Assembly (NCBI RefSeq): GCF_902826915.1 | Contig: NZ_CADEGP010000001.1 | Span: 2,775 to 66,774, forward strand | Length of the DNA stretch: 64,000 nucleotides | Source: an uncultured Nitrosomonas sp. | Lineage (GTDB): Bacteria; Pseudomonadota; Gammaproteobacteria; Burkholderiales; Nitrosomonadaceae | Direction of reading: 5' to 3' | Shown: piece by piece, positions 25,191 to 52,717 of the stretch | Layout: each line of letters starts with the position of its first letter | Position numbering within the stretch: position 1 is the first letter of the stretch | Program-made: the position numbers and the translations under genes | Notes under the pieces: generated by a model | The model's input: only the letters and a program-made list of their open reading frames with translations | The model's database searches: none | What the model was told of the DNA's origin: nothing

Positions 25191-25625
25191 ATGAAGAAAC
25201 AGTCGTTAAAAAAAGCTGTCGTTCTCATCGGCATCGTCATGGCCATTTGCCAGGCAGGTGTTGTTTCGTCCCATCAATTGATTAATAGCCTTACCGCAGT
25301 TGATGCTGTCGATCATTTCCTGGTTACTTGTAGTGAAGCAGATAATCATCATCTGTATGCGCAGATCGATGATCTCAGGGTGGTTGATAATAGACAATTC
25401 AATTTGCTGGTTGCCAAAGACAAGGTGGCTTCCAGTGCCACTAATCCCGATGGAGAATCAAGCCCTGTCATTCGACTGGCAGGAGGTGTAGGTGTTTATC
25501 ATGTGTACGTCAGTCAAATCGTGGGTGGTGATAAAGCAGCTAATTATCAATTAATTTTTCATTGCGAAGATGTCGATAATGCGCATTTTGAAACATCGGT
25601 GCTAACTAAAATTGACCAACCATAG
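25191..25625 (+). CDS. Small secreted protein, divergent member of the family also found at 51125 and 52048; predicted mature N-terminus is His
   Basis: 144 aa with a GGAG RBS. The signal peptide ends VVSS/HQL. It aligns by eye with 51125/52048 over AVDxxxxTC, SPxxxxxxGxGVYxxxV, and HC-x6-H-x2-TSV. Confidence 0.75.
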   Translation: MKKQSLKKAVVLIGIVMAICQAGVVSSHQLINSLTAVDAVDHFLVTCSEADNHHLYAQIDDLRVVDNRQFNLLVAKDKVASSATNPDGESSPVIRLAGGVGVYHVYVSQIVGGDKAANYQLIFHCEDVDNAHFETSVLTKIDQP

Positions 25626-25636
25626 TATGTCTGAGT

Positions 25637-26830
25637 CTATTGATTGCTGTCGTCATCGGATTGCCTGATCGGAATTAAACGAAAGCCGGTATCCATACTG
25701 TTCCAGGATAGAAAAATTTGCTTGCCGTCAGTGATCAGTGCAGGATGAGCGGACTGAGTTGCTGTTTCGGCAACTACTTGCGGTTTTGACCAGTGCAATC
25801 CACCATCTGTAGAATACATAGCTTCCACGCGGGTCTGAGTGCCGTCAAACACCTTCCATGCAAGCGCTACCTGTTTGCCCAAAGCCAGCACATCGGCTCG
25901 ACCGGGTAGTTTATCTTGATCGCCCACTTGCATTGGATTGGAGAAGGTTTTTCCTTGATCATCGGACCATGCATAAAAAATTCCGCTACGTTTTTCTCCC
26001 TGAGTAAACCAAACCATGTGATACCGTCCATCAGCGCCGATCGACAAGGCAGGTCCGTGCGCAGGACAGCCTTCAATTTCCCAGTCATCGAATGTTACTC
26101 GCCACGGTTCGCTTGTTTTTCCGTCGGGTGATAGCTTAAGTAAACCATGATCGCGGATATTTCCGGGATAGACATAACGGGCCAGCATGACCAGACTGCC
26201 ATCGACATCCTCAGCCATGGCTGTACGGCAGCAGGAGCAGATGTTTTTCGCAATGCGTTGATCCGTAGGAAGGTTAATTATTCTGCCGGTTTTTGCAGAT
26301 ACATGGTAGATCGATAGATCTCCATCGCCCTGTTTTTTGTATTCGGCCCGATCACGCACATCGTGCCAAGTAAAATGCACGCGATTGTTCGTGTCTATTA
26401 GCATCTCCGCCTGATAGTGATACCAGGTATTGGCTTCAGAACTAATTTTGACCGGTGTGCTGAACTGGGTGCCGTTGTCGGAATGGCTGAAAAAACTGGT
26501 GCTGGATTGTTTATCATCGGCAAAGTAGAGCACATACACTCTTCCTGTTTGATCAACGGCTAAGGTGGGCGGATTTTCATCCCATGCATGTATCGGCATA
26601 CCTGCCGAGTTGACGCGAACCGGTTGACTGAAAGACTGGCCAAAATCGATTGAATAATCAACAGAAATGGATTTCTGGGCAGAAAGAATGCGCCAAAGCC
26701 GCCCATCTGGCCCAAATGTCGCTGCGGTATAGATTTTTTGTTCAGGCAGTAATTTTTCGGTTTCAGCAACCAGATTATGCGATAAAGCTAGTAATAATAG
26801 AGTGCTGCAGATCAAAGCAAAATGATTCAT
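25637..26830 (-). CDS. Secreted BNR/Asp-box repeat beta-propeller (sialidase-like fold) with CxCC and GCPxHGP motifs
   Basis: 397 aa with a signal peptide. There are four Asp-box-like motifs (SIDFGQSF, SDNGTQF, SDDQGKTF, STDGGLHW). Unusual motifs are C198-x-C200-C201 and G-C255-P-A-H258-G-P. Confidence 0.7.
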   Translation of the reverse strand: MNHFALICSTLLLLALSHNLVAETEKLLPEQKIYTAATFGPDGRLWRILSAQKSISVDYSIDFGQSFSQPVRVNSAGMPIHAWDENPPTLAVDQTGRVYVLYFADDKQSSTSFFSHSDNGTQFSTPVKISSEANTWYHYQAEMLIDTNNRVHFTWHDVRDRAEYKKQGDGDLSIYHVSAKTGRIINLPTDQRIAKNICSCCRTAMAEDVDGSLVMLARYVYPGNIRDHGLLKLSPDGKTSEPWRVTFDDWEIEGCPAHGPALSIGADGRYHMVWFTQGEKRSGIFYAWSDDQGKTFSNPMQVGDQDKLPGRADVLALGKQVALAWKVFDGTQTRVEAMYSTDGGLHWSKPQVVAETATQSAHPALITDGKQIFLSWNSMDTGFRLIPIRQSDDDSNQ

Positions 26831-26987: not shown

Positions 26988-27482
26988 CTAATTGATAATT
27001 GTCTTGAGCATGGCTTCGAGCGTTTCGCGTGATACAGAACCACTGATGCCGACACGCTGGTGATCTTTGTCGAGAAAATAGGTGCGAGGGACTTCACCAT
27101 ACCATTTAGGATCAATTTCATAACGAAGTTTTTGGGAGTTGGCGTCAGCAAAGATCCAGTTATCTGCATTATTCAGTTCATTTCCAGTCAGTATAGACAG
27201 CGCTTGATTAGAAGCTGAAGCATCATCAGTTGCTAGCATGATCAGGTTAATATCCGGCATATTTTTGCGAAGCTCACTAAGTAATGGCATCTTTTTTTTG
27301 CACGAAGTGCAGTTGATAGACCAAATCATCAATACGAATGGCTTGTCGGCATATTCATTCAGTAATTGTTGATAGCTGCCAGAAGTAAAATGCTTCAAAT
27401 TAACTTGCTCAGCGCGAGCGGGGAAGGCAATGCTGCACGACAAGAATAGTAAGTAAGTAATTAGAATTTTAGGTGATTTCAT
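26988..27482 (-). CDS. Periplasmic TlpA/ResA-like thiol:disulfide oxidoreductase
   Basis: 164 aa with a signal peptide (SIAFPARA/EQ) and a thioredoxin-fold active site (WSINCTSC). Confidence 0.75.
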   Translation of the reverse strand: MKSPKILITYLLFLSCSIAFPARAEQVNLKHFTSGSYQQLLNEYADKPFVLMIWSINCTSCKKKMPLLSELRKNMPDINLIMLATDDASASNQALSILTGNELNNADNWIFADANSQKLRYEIDPKWYGEVPRTYFLDKDHQRVGISGSVSRETLEAMLKTIIN

Positions 27483-46003: not shown

Positions 46004-47551
46004 TTACCGGATAAAGTGATGGGTGCCGATTGAATCAACAATCATCCGTCGATAGTGCTCTGATTTACGGATTTGTAACAGTTCGAGATTGCTTAGGTTG
46101 TCGGTCAGGATTGTTCCATGCGCTGGGTCAATAGTTAATAATCTCTGATTTAACCAGGTGCGGTTGGAGAAAGGTATTGAATCATCGCCCAAATTGATGA
46201 CATGATTTGTGGCGAGAAAAATGAAATCATTAAAATCTGCACCCGGATCGGAAATGAATACGTGTTGATGCGGGAAGACTTGCGCCAATGTTTTCGAAAC
46301 AGAGGCCAGCGCCGCATTTTGACCATTATCCAGGAAAGAAACAAAATTCAGAGCAAGAATTCCGTGCCTTGAAAGCAAGCCGTGCAATTGCGCTAATGCT
46401 TCAACGGTCAATAAATGGGTTGGTTCGGTGCCGCCAGTGAATACATCCAGAATGATTAAATCATAAGGGCCTTTGAGCTGACGAATCTCATAACGCGCAT
46501 CGCCGATGATTCTACGACCTGTTGGCATAAAGCCGAAATATTCGTTGGCCGCTTCGGCAACGGCAGGGTCAATTTCCAGCGTGTCCGTTACAATTCCTGC
46601 CTTATTCAAAGTCATAACCATATGTCCGGCGCCCTGGCCAATTAATAAGGCTTTCTCCATATTCGGTACGAGAAAAGGGATTTGCCCCACGATTTTCTGG
46701 TAGGTGAGGAGATTTTCTCCATGGCTGATACTGGCTGCGCCAATGGTGGAAGCGTCTGAAGTGAGCAAACGAATATTTTCCTTGGGCTTGTCAATTACGC
46801 GAACCCAACCGTATAAGCTTTCTCGTTCGAATCGGGTTTGGAAGGTATCACTGAATTCTGCTTGCCCTGAGCTGACGATTTGTGGAAACAAGCCAAATCC
46901 AATCACCAATAATAGGGTTGCCGGTACGATGACCGTTGTGGATTTTAGATATTTTCGTTCTATCCATGCCACTGCCATCGCTAATACCAATAGTGCAATC
47001 CCCAGGCCCACAAAAATTTCACGAGAGCCGATCAAAGGAAATAAATAAAAACCGAGAAATAGCGTGCCGATGACGCTGCCGACGGTACTGACCGCATAAA
47101 TAGAGCCCGTGCTGGCGCCCACATTAGCCAGTGCGGAAGTGGATAATTTAACTGCAAAAGGCCCAACCATGCCCAGCATAATCAAGCTGGGCGAGAATAG
47201 GATCAGTGTGCTGATGAAGCTACCCAGACGCAAACCCAGCGGATCTGTGGCCAGTAAAACCGGCCCTGCCAGCCAGGGAATGATGAGTGTTAATAGTCCT
47301 GCCGTTGCGATAATGAGAGATAATCCAGATCGTGCCCGGTCGGCCCAGATTCCGCCCAGATAATAGCCAAGCGCCAGTGCGATCAGTGTGACAGCAATCA
47401 GTGAAGTCCAGACATACAGGCTGGCGCCATAGAAAGGCGCGATCAGCCGTGTGCCCAGCAACTCAATAACCATAACCGCTGCACCGGTGAGAAATACGGT
47501 GCAGTAAAGCCAGGCTTTGTCAAAAATAGTTGAAGATGAAGGAGTGTTCAT
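46004..47551 (-). CDS. Fused polytopic membrane domain plus spermidine/spermine synthase-like methyltransferase-fold domain
   Basis: 515 aa. The N-terminal ~200 aa are multi-TM. The C-terminal part has aminopropyltransferase-like motifs (LLIGQGAGH, LEIDPAV, DLIILDVFTGG). Confidence 0.7.
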   Translation of the reverse strand: MNTPSSSTIFDKAWLYCTVFLTGAAVMVIELLGTRLIAPFYGASLYVWTSLIAVTLIALALGYYLGGIWADRARSGLSLIIATAGLLTLIIPWLAGPVLLATDPLGLRLGSFISTLILFSPSLIMLGMVGPFAVKLSTSALANVGASTGSIYAVSTVGSVIGTLFLGFYLFPLIGSREIFVGLGIALLVLAMAVAWIERKYLKSTTVIVPATLLLVIGFGLFPQIVSSGQAEFSDTFQTRFERESLYGWVRVIDKPKENIRLLTSDASTIGAASISHGENLLTYQKIVGQIPFLVPNMEKALLIGQGAGHMVMTLNKAGIVTDTLEIDPAVAEAANEYFGFMPTGRRIIGDARYEIRQLKGPYDLIILDVFTGGTEPTHLLTVEALAQLHGLLSRHGILALNFVSFLDNGQNAALASVSKTLAQVFPHQHVFISDPGADFNDFIFLATNHVINLGDDSIPFSNRTWLNQRLLTIDPAHGTILTDNLSNLELLQIRKSEHYRRMIVDSIGTHHFIR

Positions 47552-49179: not shown

Positions 49180-49368
49180 TTTTTCTATGGTTTGATCAAT
49201 AGTATCCATTCCTGAAGAAATTGCTGTTTATCTCCTAGCGATTTTTTTAAATGATGTCTCGTTGAATAATCTCTTGTGGTGCGAGCACTTGTATCTCTGG
49301 AAGCCTATCTTCTTACTGTAAGAGGAAAAGAAGTTAAACAACCGGTGGATAATTAAGCGCAATTAATA

Positions 49369-49399
49369 CCCCGCAGCTTGCTGCGGGGTTTTTTCTTTT
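49369..49399 (+). terminator. Rho-independent terminator (CCCCGCAG-CTTG-CTGCGGGG followed by TTTTTTCTTTT) with no CDS upstream
   Basis: Perfect 8-bp GC-rich stem, tetraloop and T-run, read directly on the plus strand. Confidence 0.8.
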
Positions 49400-49437: not shown

Positions 49438-49621
49438 CTTTTACGTGATAAGCAAAATAACATCGCGTCCTGAAATAAGTTCTTTTCTCTAGGGAGTAAA
49501 GGTATCTGGGTAGGTGGGAAAAGAATGGTTTCAGTTGCCCTTTGAGATCCACCTCAAAAGGCAACTATAGTGAGAAAGTATAAAAAATTCTATTAATAAG
49601 TTAAAAAGAGGTCTTTACAAC

Positions 49622-50377
49622 ATGTTAACAAAACAATTTAAGTCTTTTACCCATACTGCGTTAGCGACTGCTCTGCTGTTGGGTCTCTCACAAAACGTAT
49701 TATCGCATACTCGCCTGGAAATTCCTGCAGGAACCGAAGGGGTGAGAATTACTAATAATGTGGTTATTGGCCATGGTTGCGGAGATAATACTTTTGTAAC
49801 TAAAAGTTCAATAGTTTTTCCAGATGGTGTGGATTCAATTGTCAAAGTCAATGGCGCAGTTTCATCTGACACCATTGATGTACACGTTGCAAATTGGGGT
49901 AATTTATTTCAGAAAGTGTTGGAGCCAGTTGTTTTTAAAGCAGAAGATGAGAAGACTGATGGTAGCGGTAATGTCGTAGGGTTTTATGTGAAAGATGGCA
50001 AAATGCCGAATCATTATGCAAGCTATCTTAAATTTAGAGCCGGTGCGGTTTTGTTTGAACCGACCTCCTGTGCTTCTAGCTTAAAAATTGTTATACCAAT
50101 TGCGGATATTTGCAAGCAAACACCGATATCAGGCTTTGCCGATGGGAAGCTTAATCTCTGGACACCGGCGGTAGGATCTGATTATGACGGTCCTGGATTG
50201 CATGGTTACGATTCTCCAGCAACTTACACGGTAAATCGTGATCTGGTTGTCAATCCACTACCCGGAAGTTGTTCGGCGACAGGAGATGTGGTTGATTTGG
50301 TTCCATCCGCAGCGCAGATCAACCGTGATATGCCAATCAAAAACAAGAAGGGTGTGCAGATTTGGCCAAAACCATAA
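49622..50377 (+). CDS. Secreted YcnI/DUF1775-like protein with a C-terminal extension; predicted mature N-terminus is His
   Basis: 251 aa with the signal peptide ending NVLS/HTRLE. Mature HTRLEIPAGTEGVRITNNVVIGHGCGDN...IVFPDGV resembles the proteobacterial DUF1775 pattern H-V-x-L-E-P...AG....F-R-V-x-HGC-x-G-S...I-P-x-GV as I remember it. Confidence 0.55.
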   Translation: MLTKQFKSFTHTALATALLLGLSQNVLSHTRLEIPAGTEGVRITNNVVIGHGCGDNTFVTKSSIVFPDGVDSIVKVNGAVSSDTIDVHVANWGNLFQKVLEPVVFKAEDEKTDGSGNVVGFYVKDGKMPNHYASYLKFRAGAVLFEPTSCASSLKIVIPIADICKQTPISGFADGKLNLWTPAVGSDYDGPGLHGYDSPATYTVNRDLVVNPLPGSCSATGDVVDLVPSAAQINRDMPIKNKKGVQIWPKP

Positions 50378-50465: not shown

Positions 50466-51038
50466 ATGTTGAAATTACCAAATCATAAGAGTGGCATAGC
50501 CATGCCGCTCGTTATTTCTTTTATTGTAATGGCCGGATTTGCGAATCATGTGTTTGCAGACAATGCAAAAGCGAGCTCGCCTTCCAGCTTGGATTCCATC
50601 CAGATTTATTGCATGGCGGAACAGGGCAGTGCAGCGGAGCCTGATGCTAATTTTACCGAGACTATAATCGACCTTGCGGCATCGAATGATCCGGCACAAA
50701 GAGTAAGCGCCTTGTCGCAACTGGCAGAAAAAGGATCGATTGACGCCGGCGTTGTAGAGAAAATTCTGCAAACCGCGATTCAAGATGCCGACCCGAACGT
50801 CAGAGGACAGGCAGTTTATGCCTTTGCACAGCAAGGTTGCGGTGATCTTTTTGTAGTACTTGAACAAGCTTTGCAAGACACCGAGCTTTCAGTACGGCTG
50901 ATGGCGTTGGATAGTTTGGGTGCTGATGAAAGAAGCGTAGCGCTACTTAAAGAAATCGTTGAAGACGAAGACGAAACTGAAGCTATCAAAGATCTGGCTG
51001 CGATGAAATTGGAATCTTTGAGCACAAGTAGTAATTAA
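50466..51038 (+). CDS. Periplasmic HEAT-repeat (PBS-lyase type) protein
   Basis: 190 aa with a signal-like N-terminus (ISFIVMAGFANHVFA/DN). The repeats carry the D(P/A)xxRVxAxxxL pattern (DPAQRVSALSQL, DPNVRGQAVYAF, ELSVRLMALDSL). Confidence 0.65.
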   Translation: MLKLPNHKSGIAMPLVISFIVMAGFANHVFADNAKASSPSSLDSIQIYCMAEQGSAAEPDANFTETIIDLAASNDPAQRVSALSQLAEKGSIDAGVVEKILQTAIQDADPNVRGQAVYAFAQQGCGDLFVVLEQALQDTELSVRLMALDSLGADERSVALLKEIVEDEDETEAIKDLAAMKLESLSTSSN

Positions 51039-51056: not shown

Positions 51057-51124
51057 GTGGCATTTAATAAGCTGCTTATGCTATCGATGGAATTGTAAGA
51101 TTATCTTATTTAAGAGGGTTGAAG

Positions 51125-51586
51125 ATGAAATTCTCAAATTTGAAGGGAATATTTGTTTCGGTTTTTGGATTAATGGCGTTATATGCAGGCACTGTTTCGG
51201 CGCATAACCAAGCGGGCAGCTTTACCACCGGCTTAGCGGCTGCGGTTGACTTTTATCAGGCCACTTGTTTTGACGATGGAAGTGGTGCGCCGTCCTATCT
51301 CGAAGCGCAAGTCAAAGATATGACAGCCAGCACCGCCAAAGCCAGCATACTCGTGCATAAAGGAACCAGTTGCACCACCAATAAGTGCGCGCAATTTAGT
51401 GTCGACACTACGGATAGCAACACCACCTACAGTCCTTTAGTGACCGTAAAGCAAGGTGCCGGGGTATATAGCATATTCGTGATGCATACGGCAGCAGGCA
51501 CGGATAGTTATGATGTGGCGCTCCATTGTAAAACCGCAGCCGGTGTACATACGGGTACCAGTGTCGTATCAAGACAGCAGCAATGA
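51125..51586 (+). CDS. Small secreted protein, family member 1 (predicted mature N-terminus His; 4 Cys; C-terminal HC-x6-H)
   Basis: AAGAGGG RBS 7 nt before the ATG. The signal peptide ends TVSA/HNQAGSF. It has a close paralogue at 52048 and a distant one at 25191. Confidence 0.8.
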   Translation: MKFSNLKGIFVSVFGLMALYAGTVSAHNQAGSFTTGLAAAVDFYQATCFDDGSGAPSYLEAQVKDMTASTAKASILVHKGTSCTTNKCAQFSVDTTDSNTTYSPLVTVKQGAGVYSIFVMHTAAGTDSYDVALHCKTAAGVHTGTSVVSRQQQ

Positions 51587-51689
51587 TGCGTATCAGTTTC
51601 AATCGAATGGTTGTGCGTTTTTGAAAATAAGGGCGTTATCGGGTTTGTGCTGCAGATACTCAATCCTAACCACAAACAAAACAGACGGT

Positions 51690-51950
51690 AACGCTTTAAT
51701 TTTGATGTCTTTAAGTGGTACTGGATTTGCATGAATCATTTGTTCACAGAGTATGTGAAAGCAAATTGGGTTTTCAGCCTGAGTCCAGCGTACATTGATT
51801 GTTTAGCCGGGAATGGTCATTTAGCTTTACGGTATCGAACAACCCCACACAAAGGGTAAGCACATTCTCGCGATTGGCCATGAAGGGTCGATTGGTGCTG
51901 GAGCCCTACAAAATTCCGCGTACAGCGATTCAAGATAACGATATCCAATA
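51690..51950 (+). pseudogene. Decayed, internally deleted copy of the HEAT-repeat gene (50466..51038)
   Basis: Nucleotide similarity is visible by eye. GGATTTGCATGAATCAT matches GGATTTGCGAATCAT. GTTCACAGAGTATGTGAAAGCAAATTGGG matches GTTTGCAGACAATGCAAAAGCGAGCTCGCC. The translated relic ..SNNPTQRVSTFSRLAMKGRL..TAIQDNDIQ* matches ASNDPAQRVSALSQLAEKGSI..TAIQDADPNV. It is truncated by a stop and lacks an intact start. Confidence 0.7.
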
Positions 51951-52047
51951 AACTGCTCGCGGTGTCGGCAGGATTGTAAAGTTATATCAGATGATCACTC
52001 GTGTTAAAGAGAGTGACAAAAAGATTGTTGATTTAAGGAGGTGTATG

Positions 52048-52509
52048 ATGAAATTCTCAAATTTGAAGGGAATGCTTGTTTTATTGTTTGTATTGATGGC
52101 ACTGAATGTTGGTACAGCTTCGGCGCATAATCAAGCGGGTAGTTTTACCACTGGTTTGGCGGCTGCGGTTGACTATTATCAGGCTACTTGTTTTGACGAT
52201 GGAAGCGGCGCGCCGTCCTATCTCGAAGCGCAAGTCAAGGATATGACAGCCAGTTCAGCTAAAGTGAGTGTGCTCGTGCATAAAGGAACCAGTTGTGCCA
52301 CCAAAAAGTGCGCGCAATTTAGAGTCGATAGCGGGGATCGCAACACCACTTACAGTCCCTTAGTGAAAGTTCCGCAAGGTTCTGGTGTATATAGTGTATT
52401 CGTGATGCATACGGCAGCAGGCACGGATAGTTATGATGTGGCGCTCCACTGTAAAACCTCAAGCGGTATACATACGGGAACCAGTGTCGTATCGAGACAA
52501 CAACAATAA
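52048..52509 (+). CDS. Small secreted protein, family member 2 (tandem paralogue of 51125..51586)
   Basis: AGGAGG RBS. The signal peptide ends TASA/HNQAGSF. By manual count there are about 25 substitutions over ~153 residues relative to 51125..51586. Confidence 0.8.
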   Translation: MKFSNLKGMLVLLFVLMALNVGTASAHNQAGSFTTGLAAAVDYYQATCFDDGSGAPSYLEAQVKDMTASSAKVSVLVHKGTSCATKKCAQFRVDSGDRNTTYSPLVKVPQGSGVYSVFVMHTAAGTDSYDVALHCKTSSGIHTGTSVVSRQQQ

Positions 52510-52717
52510 TAATGAGCAGCATCTGCTTTAACTAAATTGTTGTAGCTACTTGAAAGTAAGAGTGTTGCCGTGTTCGTTAGTTTCAGTCTGCTGATCACAA
52601 TCAATCAAACGGTAATGCTCGAGCTTTATGGAGATAGCCAAAGTGTGGTTCATGCATTACTTGTATGAGCTATATTTTTATTGAGGGATCTATTTTTTAG
52701 GTGGTTATTGATAGGGG

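Follow-up and report, generated by a model that had tools for sequence, protein, structure and literature searches.

A family of small exported proteins with a predicted amino-terminal histidine metal site, encoded beside a YcnI-like protein in Nitrosomonas

To our knowledge, metal sites with an amino-terminal histidine occur on only a handful of scaffolds, namely those of LPMOs, CopC, YcnI, some PCuAC domains and PmoB. Each new scaffold of this kind has opened a piece of copper biology. Here, we describe a further candidate: a family of small exported proteins with three copies (a1, a2 and c) in a stretch of 64,000 nucleotides from an uncultured Nitrosomonas sp. (contig NZ_CADEGP010000001.1, positions 2,775 to 66,774), called the window below. 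Two described systems come closest. The first is YcnI (DUF1775; known from B. subtilis, and as PcuD from Bradyrhizobium), which is, like our family, an exported small beta-sandwich with a conserved His as first residue. YcnI binds Cu(II) via this His in a 'mono-histidine brace' (PMC8424229), and Cu(II) is exchanged between YcnI and another protein with an N-terminal His, the His-brace CopC domain of YcnJ (PMC12154828). The second is a flavin-containing system of DsbD, a thioredoxin-like protein, DUF4266, DUF3570 and ApbE. As Meheust et al. showed by experiment (eLife 2021, PMC8238504), ApbE flavinylates DUF3570. In their description of the system, whose function is unknown, DUF3570 clusters with the thioredoxin-like protein and DUF4266, and in many cases also with DsbD.

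The family differs from YcnI in its fold, shares no sequence similarity with it and would use two further His where YcnI uses Glu and Trp. Moreover, its neighbours are HEAT, TlpA and DUF3570 proteins, whereas those of YcnI are CopCD or PCuAC. With the histidine-brace sites of LPMOs, CopC, the PCuAC domains of PmoF and the CuB site of PmoB it has in common an N-terminal His released by signal cleavage (predicted in the family) and further His; the N-terminal His plus two His resemble PmoB CuB in ligand count. Unlike these proteins, the family has a predicted jelly-roll/PPC-like, disulfide-stapled scaffold, its first residue can be replaced by Asp, and copper is assigned to it by analogy. The family has no link to amo/pmo operons and also occurs outside nitrifiers and methanotrophs. 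In most non-reduced loci the family genes lie directly upstream of the genes for the TlpA-like protein, DUF4266, DUF3570 and ApbE, whereas the published description of the DUF3570 system lists neither the HEAT protein, nor the YcnI-like protein of 251 amino acids (aa), nor the present family among its components (PMC8238504), and the window locus is without the flavin module. We propose that the family proteins are probable copper-binding end components of this flavin/thiol system. What is new is above all this genomic context, and with it a large family, unnamed in Pfam and NCBIfam, with a predicted histidine-brace-like site on a different, disulfide-stapled jelly-roll scaffold.

The three window copies, with their key codons, are as follows.

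51125..51586, + strand: family member a1, open reading frame (ORF) with translation of 153 aa; signal peptide residues 1-26 (51125-51202); codons of His27 at 51203-51205, Cys48 at 51266-51268, His134-Cys135 at 51524-51529 and His142 at 51548-51550.
52048..52509, + strand: family member a2, 153 aa, tandem duplicate of a1, with a possible alternative start ATG at 52045; codons of His27 at 52126-52128, Cys48 at 52189-52191, His134-Cys135 at 52447-52452 and His142 at 52471-52473.
25191..25625, + strand: family member c, 144 aa, of a divergent Nitrosomonas subfamily; codons of His28 at 25272-25274, Cys47 at 25329-25331, His124-Cys125 at 25560-25565 and His132 at 25584-25586.

The original prediction, made by eye from the sequence, had aligned these three ORFs as one family, and both the coordinates and the relationship were confirmed. 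The copies a1 and a2 are 84% identical, in nucleotides as well as in protein, while member c shares 27-31% identity with them (BLASTP E 3e-13). Comparison of the subfamily profile of member c with the profile of the main family from which c had been excluded gave an hhalign probability of 99.7% (E 1.4e-25). A six-frame scan of the window with a hidden Markov model (HMM) returned exactly the three members that had been predicted. All three are preceded by a plausible Shine-Dalgarno-like ribosome-binding site, which in a1 reads AAGAGGG and lies 7 nt before the start codon.

The signal peptides predicted for the three copies end in small-x-small followed directly by His (VSA|H, ASA|H and VSS|H), in agreement with the AXA-type sites that had been proposed. 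This cleavage signature extends to the family at large: position -1 was Ala in 121 of 129 single-domain representatives, and position -3 was Ala, Val, Thr, Ser or Gly in 127 of 129. The proposed sequence blocks AVD-x4-TC, SP-x6-G-x-GVY-x3-V and Y-x4-HC-x6-H-x2-TSV are present in all three copies. The block Y-x2-AQ-x2-D needs correction, as its Tyr is missing in member c and its invariant residues are L, A, Q and D only. Similarly, the six-residue spacing of the HC-x6-H motif was found in 194 of 234 family motifs, but 22 had x9 and the remainder ranged from x5 to x12.

The residue at the start of the mature chain and both His of this motif behave as a unit. Among 106 close sequences, the residue after the predicted cleavage site was His in 87, Asp in 18 and Gly in 1, and His134 and His142 were each kept in 100. 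The 129 single-domain representatives had His at position 27 in 113 cases and Asp in 4. Asp was the first mature residue in 8-17% of sequences. In the subfamily of member c, H28, C47, H124, C125 and H132 were invariant in 19 sequences. Conservation of the N-terminal His across homologues hence held for most members, but not for those with Asp or for triad-less members with other residues. Since position 27 is occupied by Asp or another residue in some members, a strict histidine brace is not a family-wide requirement.

We scored 289 domain instances at positions 27, 134 and 142. The pattern H-H-H was found in 217 domains, D-H-H in 22, H-H-E in 6 and H-x-x in 2, and all three residues were non-His in 22 domains plus a few gapped cases. 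Loss of one of His134 and His142 to a non-ligand residue was found in none of the 289, and xHx and xxH did not occur. Mutual information with average product correction, calculated over 276 domains (effective number 210) from counts that ignore phylogeny, gave H134-H142 as the highest-scoring pair of the whole alignment. The pairs H27-H134 and H27-H142 took ranks 6 and 8, several of the higher pairs being signal-peptide gap artefacts; the Fisher p value of the covariation was 5e-22. Because the triad is kept or lost together, and partial changes are only His to Asp or His to Glu, this pattern supports the view that positions 27, 134 and 142 make up one functional site, in which the tolerated substitutions are metal ligands as well. 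The N-terminal His and the His of the HC-x6-H motif had been singled out in the original prediction, and their joint presence and absence in 289 domains, together with their covariation, bears this out. That the site binds a metal of some kind we consider likely.

The two cysteines followed a different pattern. Cys48 and Cys135 were invariant in the 106 close sequences, and the Cys pair, D42, D65, D94, K79 and T143-G-T145 were conserved in domains with and without the triad. Since even the domains without a triad all have this pair, the cysteines of TC and HC most likely form a structural disulfide that joins strand 2 to strand 8 rather than acting as metal ligands. The original prediction had raised this as a caveat, noting correctly that the divergent member c has only two Cys in its mature form; a1 has an additional C83-x4-C88 pair. 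The Cys pair might instead be the functional centre of the protein, either as a redox-active disulfide reduced by a TlpA-like thioredoxin in a thiol relay or as a Sco-like Cys2His site for Cu(I). TlpA-like thioredoxins indeed adjoin family genes in both types of locus (cluster c10 in the long gene clusters, and 26988-27482 beside member c), and one Cys directly neighbours a triad His in the HC motif. However, Cys that are invariant in every domain, including those without His, are typical of a structural staple and not of a CxxC-type pair, and the thioredoxin already has obvious partners in DsbD and in DUF4266 with its C-terminal GCGCY. We therefore give this explanation little credence.

Proteins with two family domains in a single ORF (P0247, P0248 and P0250) offer a further view of the triad. 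The first domain of these proteins has none of the three His. After it come a PEP-CTERM-like anchor, an Arg cluster, a second signal-peptide-like stretch ending in AXA|H and finally a domain with the full triad. One of them, P0248, was found as one ORF on two independent contigs (loci L030 and L031). In P0265 and P0358, it is the C-terminal, internal domain that is without all three His. Judged from these arrangements, the triad appears to occur only where a free N-terminus can be generated, as an amino-terminal chelate requires. The anchor of the triad-less domain in the three two-domain proteins gave a weak match to NF038126 ('FxDxF PEP-CTERM').

The AlphaFold2 model of a1 has a mean predicted local distance difference test score (pLDDT) of 84, with residues 1-20 disordered and nine beta-strands, the first of which begins exactly at His27. 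In this model, the mature chain (about 125 residues) folds into one beta-sandwich with a jelly-roll/PPC-like shape. A short loop connects strands 27-33 and 41-49, so that residue 27 comes to lie opposite residues 47-49; the presumed partner of Cys48 is Cys135, and His142 lies in the hairpin loop that follows His134-Cys135. From this strand topology and the covariation we infer that the triad residues are close in space.

Foldseek comparison of the a1 model with PDB gave weak matches (TM ~0.45-0.6, E 3e-4 to 1e-2), all of them to jelly-roll sandwiches: the calpain C2-like domain, the C-terminal jelly roll of Tk-SP, the collagen-binding domains of ColG and ColH, and CBM6/35. Cupredoxin, CopC, PCuAC and YcnI folds were not among the top 50 Foldseek PDB matches. 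The cupredoxin, CopC, PCuAC and DUF1775 folds had been named as candidates, and the weak jelly-roll/PPC-like matches speak against them. Accordingly, membership of CopC, PCuAC or cupredoxin/nitrosocyanin was rejected, with no Pfam/NCBIfam, PDB-sequence or Foldseek match, and so was membership of YcnI/DUF1775, with no Pfam match and YcnI absent from the top 50 Foldseek matches.

PPC and collagen-binding jelly rolls are thus the best, though weak, structural matches of the family. These domains bind Ca2+ via acidic residues and are appended to enzymes. The family differs from them in its His triad, in being a free-standing exported protein and in having no consistent sequence match to them: the PPC model matched none of 42 family members. 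One distant relative, P0384, has a sub-threshold Pfam PPC match (E 0.0095) over the family domain, because of which a remote kinship with the PPC/collagen-binding superfamily is possible. The family domain of P0384 (locus L032) is triad-less and is fused to a weak N-terminal match to cytochrome c (CBB3-type; E 0.0011, below the Pfam cut-off).

Given these folds, the protein might be a beta-sandwich that binds no metal at all, such as a module for binding or adhesion or a structural partner of the HEAT protein, with His serving in pH sensing, ligand binding or catalysis. Its nearest folds are binding modules (collagen-binding/PPC, CBM6/35 and calpain C2-like), about 10% of the domains keep the entire scaffold without the triad, and in some relatives there are PEP-CTERM-like anchors or DUF5648/PPC domains of the sort usual in surface proteins. 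Against this, the loss of the triad is all-or-none and the partial changes are only His to Asp and His to Glu, as a metal site predicts. Moreover, a ligand-binding surface would rarely need the extreme N-terminal residue, and degeneration into partner or scaffold domains can account for those without the triad. A non-metal role hence seems improbable.

The family was uncharacterised, as had been stated in the original prediction. Neither the three window copies nor 42 members scanned singly gave a Pfam or NCBIfam match (E up to 1), the family profile found nothing among PDB sequences at E up to 10, and the literature and family libraries searched held no name or description of it. A word-indexed search returned 103 homologues, all annotated as 'hypothetical' and mostly from Nitrosomonas, with one from a methanotroph (Methyloterricola oryzae). 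Member c had 23 close relatives, essentially all from Nitrosomonas. An exhaustive profile search of 1.84 billion cluster representatives retrieved 779 at E<=1e-3 and 517 at E<=1e-10. With 779 representatives, each standing for a cluster at 50% identity, the family is large and widespread. A scan of one genome per species found carriers among several Nitrosomonas species, Thiobacillus, Chromatiaceae, Methylobacter and Methylotetracoccus, as well as Myxococcota, Alcaligenaceae and uncultured Gammaproteobacteria; because the scan used one peptide pattern, this list is a lower bound. Members in Thiobacillus, Chromatiaceae, Myxococcota and Alcaligenaceae rule out a family restricted to ammonia and methane oxidisers. 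A search of plasmid records gave no match.

In the window, a1 and a2 are the last two genes of a four-gene unit, which begins with an exported protein of 251 aa and a HEAT-repeat protein.

49622..50377, + strand: 'P250', the first gene of the operon; exported protein of 251 aa with His29 directly after the predicted cleavage site (VLS|HTRLE).
50466..51038, + strand: HEAT-repeat protein, exported, 190 aa; signal peptide ends VFA|D; Pfam HEAT_2 match at E 2.9e-13.

The 251-aa protein also has an amino-terminal His, as the residue after the signal-peptide site was His in 28 of 28 distinct aligned copies. It further has a conserved Glu, an invariant GH[GSA]C motif (His51 and Cys53) and four invariant Cys. 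We found 361 homologues of this protein, and no Pfam, NCBIfam or PDB sequence match. Its AlphaFold2 model (pLDDT 87) had YcnI/DUF1775 proteins as all of its top six Foldseek PDB matches (E 3e-5 to 9e-5, target-normalised TM 0.63-0.71). Among the circumstantial evidence for copper handling by the module, this YcnI-like partner weighs most, by analogy with YcnI, and the 251-aa protein is arguably a cleaner histidine-brace candidate than the family itself. The pairing suggests, again by analogy, that the family takes a CopC-like role opposite its YcnI-like partner. Homology between the family and the 251-aa protein was rejected, as hhalign aligned their signal peptides only.

The arrangement of the window unit recurs elsewhere. 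In 27 related loci, clustering of the neighbours gave the order 251-aa family, HEAT protein, family protein, TlpA-like protein, DUF4266, DUF3570 and ApbE, with an optional second pair of a 251-aa and a family gene before the TlpA-like gene. The TlpA-like thioredoxin carries a WCPPC motif, DUF4266 is a lipoprotein ending in GCGCY and DUF3570 is a protein of ~900 aa. The HEAT gene lay directly upstream of the family gene in most loci examined, and a cluster of DUF3570, DUF4266, a thioredoxin-like protein and ApbE lay beside the relatives in 15 of the 27 genome or assembly loci. This gene order was repeated in a second, independent set of 20 metagenome contigs, for which another, more distant sub-alignment had served as query. 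HEAT adjoined the family gene in about 15 of the 20 metagenome loci and DUF3570 was present in 11 of the 20, most of the remaining contigs ending too early to tell. These results leave us highly confident that the family belongs to a conserved gene module.

In the window this cluster is present in a reduced form with a tandem duplication. In the complete genome of N. ureae, a separate locus (L054, LT907782.1, 9001-14831) carries a 251-aa paralogue, a fourth-type family member, a TlpA-like protein, DUF4266, DUF3570 and ApbE. Because this locus is separate, the flavin module is, by analogy, probably encoded elsewhere in the genome of the window's lineage, where the long cluster of other Nitrosomonas (L011-L013, L015 and L018) would have been split in two. 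In Supplementary file 1 of PMC8238504, flavinylation-associated clusters of Bacteroidota include lipoproteins that fuse HEAT_2 with AhpC-TSA (thioredoxin-like). Such Rosetta-stone fusions give a hint that the HEAT protein may work with the TlpA-like thioredoxin.

With ApbE encoded in the same clusters, the family protein could itself be a substrate of this enzyme, flavinylated at its conserved H-T-G-T-S segment, in which T-G-T-[ST] is superficially like the [S/T]GA[S/T] motif. However, [ST]GA[ST] is rare in the family (21 of 277 sequences) and absent from the three window copies, whereas the DUF3570 neighbours, as a positive control, carry one or two. Furthermore, the position that matches the modified residue is S/T in only about half of the sequences, and the segment reads H-F-E-T-S in member c. 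Flavinylation was rejected on this motif test, and we regard it as hardly credible.

Based on these results, we propose the following mechanism. One end of the sandwich would form a mononuclear metal site from the first mature residue (His or Asp), the His of the HC motif and the His (or Glu) 6-9 residues further on. The N-terminal position of the first ligand means that its free amino group could bind as well, giving a histidine-brace-like N3/N4 site that resembles PmoB CuB. The metal would most likely be copper, judging by the neighbours and by analogy. In the periplasm, the YcnI-like N-terminal-His protein, a HEAT-repeat scaffold and the family protein would make up a module in which the family protein captures Cu(II) and exchanges it with its YcnI-like partner, in the manner of YcnI and the CopC domain of YcnJ. 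The family protein would also be the metal-bearing end point of an electron-transfer chain of the TlpA-like protein, DUF4266 and DUF3570(FMN), at which Cu(II) could be reduced and handed on. The reading as a whole, with an N-terminal-residue metal site, copper as the preferred metal, YcnI-like and HEAT partners and coupling to the thiol/flavin chain, is tentative, with prospects only just short of even. Copper specifically, as an assignment by analogy, is possible but somewhat doubtful.

Several observations weigh against this proposal. The case for copper is one of analogy, and CopC/CopD, PCuAC, Sco and CopA were not seen next to the family in about 45 loci. The 251-aa protein resembles YcnI by fold only, having no match to the Pfam DUF1775 model. 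DUF3570, DUF4266, ApbE and the cluster-type TlpA were not found in the window by tblastn. The covariation counts for the triad take no account of phylogeny, and the closeness of its residues is deduced from covariation and strand topology. Finally, a sizeable minority of sequences begins with Asp, which a classical histidine brace does not accept at this position, and a 2-His-1-carboxylate site for Fe, Zn or Ni would explain D-H-H and H-H-E just as well.

The same site might thus hold another metal, with Zn(II), Ni(II) or Fe(II) captured by a periplasmic or surface protein. Besides the 22 D-H-H and 6 H-H-E domains that look like 2-His-1-carboxylate sites, canonical copper genes were not found in the neighbourhoods. 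Zinc has a precedent in ZepA, a secreted PEP-CTERM protein that mediates cyanobacterial zinc uptake (PMC10957091). ZepA is like the family in being secreted, in having a conserved three-His pocket proposed for metal capture and in its PEP-CTERM anchor, which some of the two-domain relatives have too. For iron, VIT1 iron transporters occur in 25 DUF3570 clusters (Meheust et al., PMC8238504), and a role in iron assimilation has been suggested for some DUF3570 systems. In contrast, a ligand at the first residue, with AXA|H kept even inside two-domain proteins, is the signature of amino-terminal Cu(II) chelation, and the paired operon gene has a YcnI-like fold and an invariant N-terminal His. A reductive flavin/thiol chain makes little sense for Zn. 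ZepA itself was rejected as a relative: its motif (H-x2-9-H-F/Y-H), two-domain architecture and Zur regulation (PMC10957091) are unlike those of the family, and there is no detectable homology. A metal other than copper is hence unlikely, although a real contender.

Alternatively, the family protein could be an LPMO-like copper oxidase or oxygenase that acts on an envelope or periplasmic substrate and is re-reduced by the DsbD/TlpA/DUF4266/DUF3570-FMN chain. Such an enzyme would have the same evidence for its site as copper transfer, and His-brace enzymes need an external reductant, for which a dedicated extracytosolic electron-transfer module is encoded next to the gene. On the other hand, the protein is very small (~125 residues) and has no obvious substrate-binding extension, several paralogues per genome are each paired with a YcnI-like, chaperone-type protein, Asp at position 1 would cripple a brace-type catalytic centre, and no substrate-related genes were found nearby. 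An enzymatic role is therefore distinctly improbable.

Returning to the role in copper transfer, a more specific version would make the family and its YcnI-like partner the missing terminal components of the DsbD/TlpA-like/DUF4266/DUF3570(FMN) chain. Together with the HEAT scaffold, they would form an envelope system that takes up Cu(II) at N-terminal-His sites and reduces it or passes it on, in effect a flavin-driven cupric reductase and copper supply on a new histidine-brace scaffold. We regard this version as speculative and rather unlikely; if true, it would add a copper-supply pathway in nitrifiers, methanotrophs, sulfur oxidisers and others. If the link to the flavin module is true, the DUF3570 system gains a testable function in the reduction or hand-off of a metal, probably copper, in the cell envelope, and ammonia and methane oxidisers, whose key enzymes depend on copper, gain candidate copper-handling proteins. 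If the site binds another metal or none, the family would still count as a new and well-defined domain family, marked by a clear gene-neighbourhood signature. The original prediction had also tied the family to ammonia monooxygenase biology, and nothing was found to link the two: no link to amo genes or copper genes was found in the window, and the flanking genes are housekeeping genes (recN-like, NAD kinase, hrcA, ferrochelatase, ubiE, phoBR-like, lgt and genes of the tricarboxylic acid cycle).

The history of the window operon can be read from its remaining features.

51827..51936, + strand: decayed second HEAT copy between a1 and a2, with 72% nucleotide identity to 50674-50786.
49542..49571, + strand: sigma-70-like promoter match (10/12) upstream of the operon, weak, the number of sites in the region being not above shuffle expectation.
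49368-49389: terminator-like hairpin before the promoter match.

The segments 52021-52510 and 51097-51587 share 84% nucleotide identity, and the ORF fragment 51799-51951, which reads NPTQRVSTFSRLAMKG..., resembles the intact HEAT protein. From these alignments, a1 and a2 are seen to be a tandem duplication of a HEAT-plus-family unit. Their dN/dS of 0.17 implies that both are under purifying selection. A locus in a metagenome-assembled genome that is 98% identical to the window locus (L007) has a second family copy in which His134 is replaced by Tyr. The HEAT proteins outside Nitrosomonas (L001 6848-7690, L006, L023 and L024; Gammaproteobacteria) have at their N-terminus an additional conserved domain (~100 residues, two Cys); it is absent from the Nitrosomonas versions and had no Pfam match at E < 0.001.

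Just upstream of the operon, at 46004-47551 on the - strand, lies a gene for a fused membrane protein that resembles a major facilitator superfamily (MFS) transporter and spermidine synthase (NF037959). This type of protein recurs (L001 14200-15765 and L051 4531-6078), beside the DUF3570 cluster in Methyloterricola and inside the cluster of a metagenome contig, where it is 62% identical. The NF037959-type protein may be a further component of the system.

The divergent copy c lies in a different setting, next to two genes on the opposite strand.

25637..26830, - strand: BNR/beta-propeller-like protein, exported, 397 aa, convergent with member c.
26988..27482, - strand: TlpA/AhpC-like thioredoxin-fold protein, exported, 164 aa, with a CTSC motif, upstream of the BNR gene.

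This trio of member c, the BNR-like protein and the TlpA/AhpC-like protein recurs with different flanks in a second Nitrosomonas genome (L028 and L029). At L028, a gene for a di-haem cytochrome c peroxidase (CCP)/MauG protein lies upstream.

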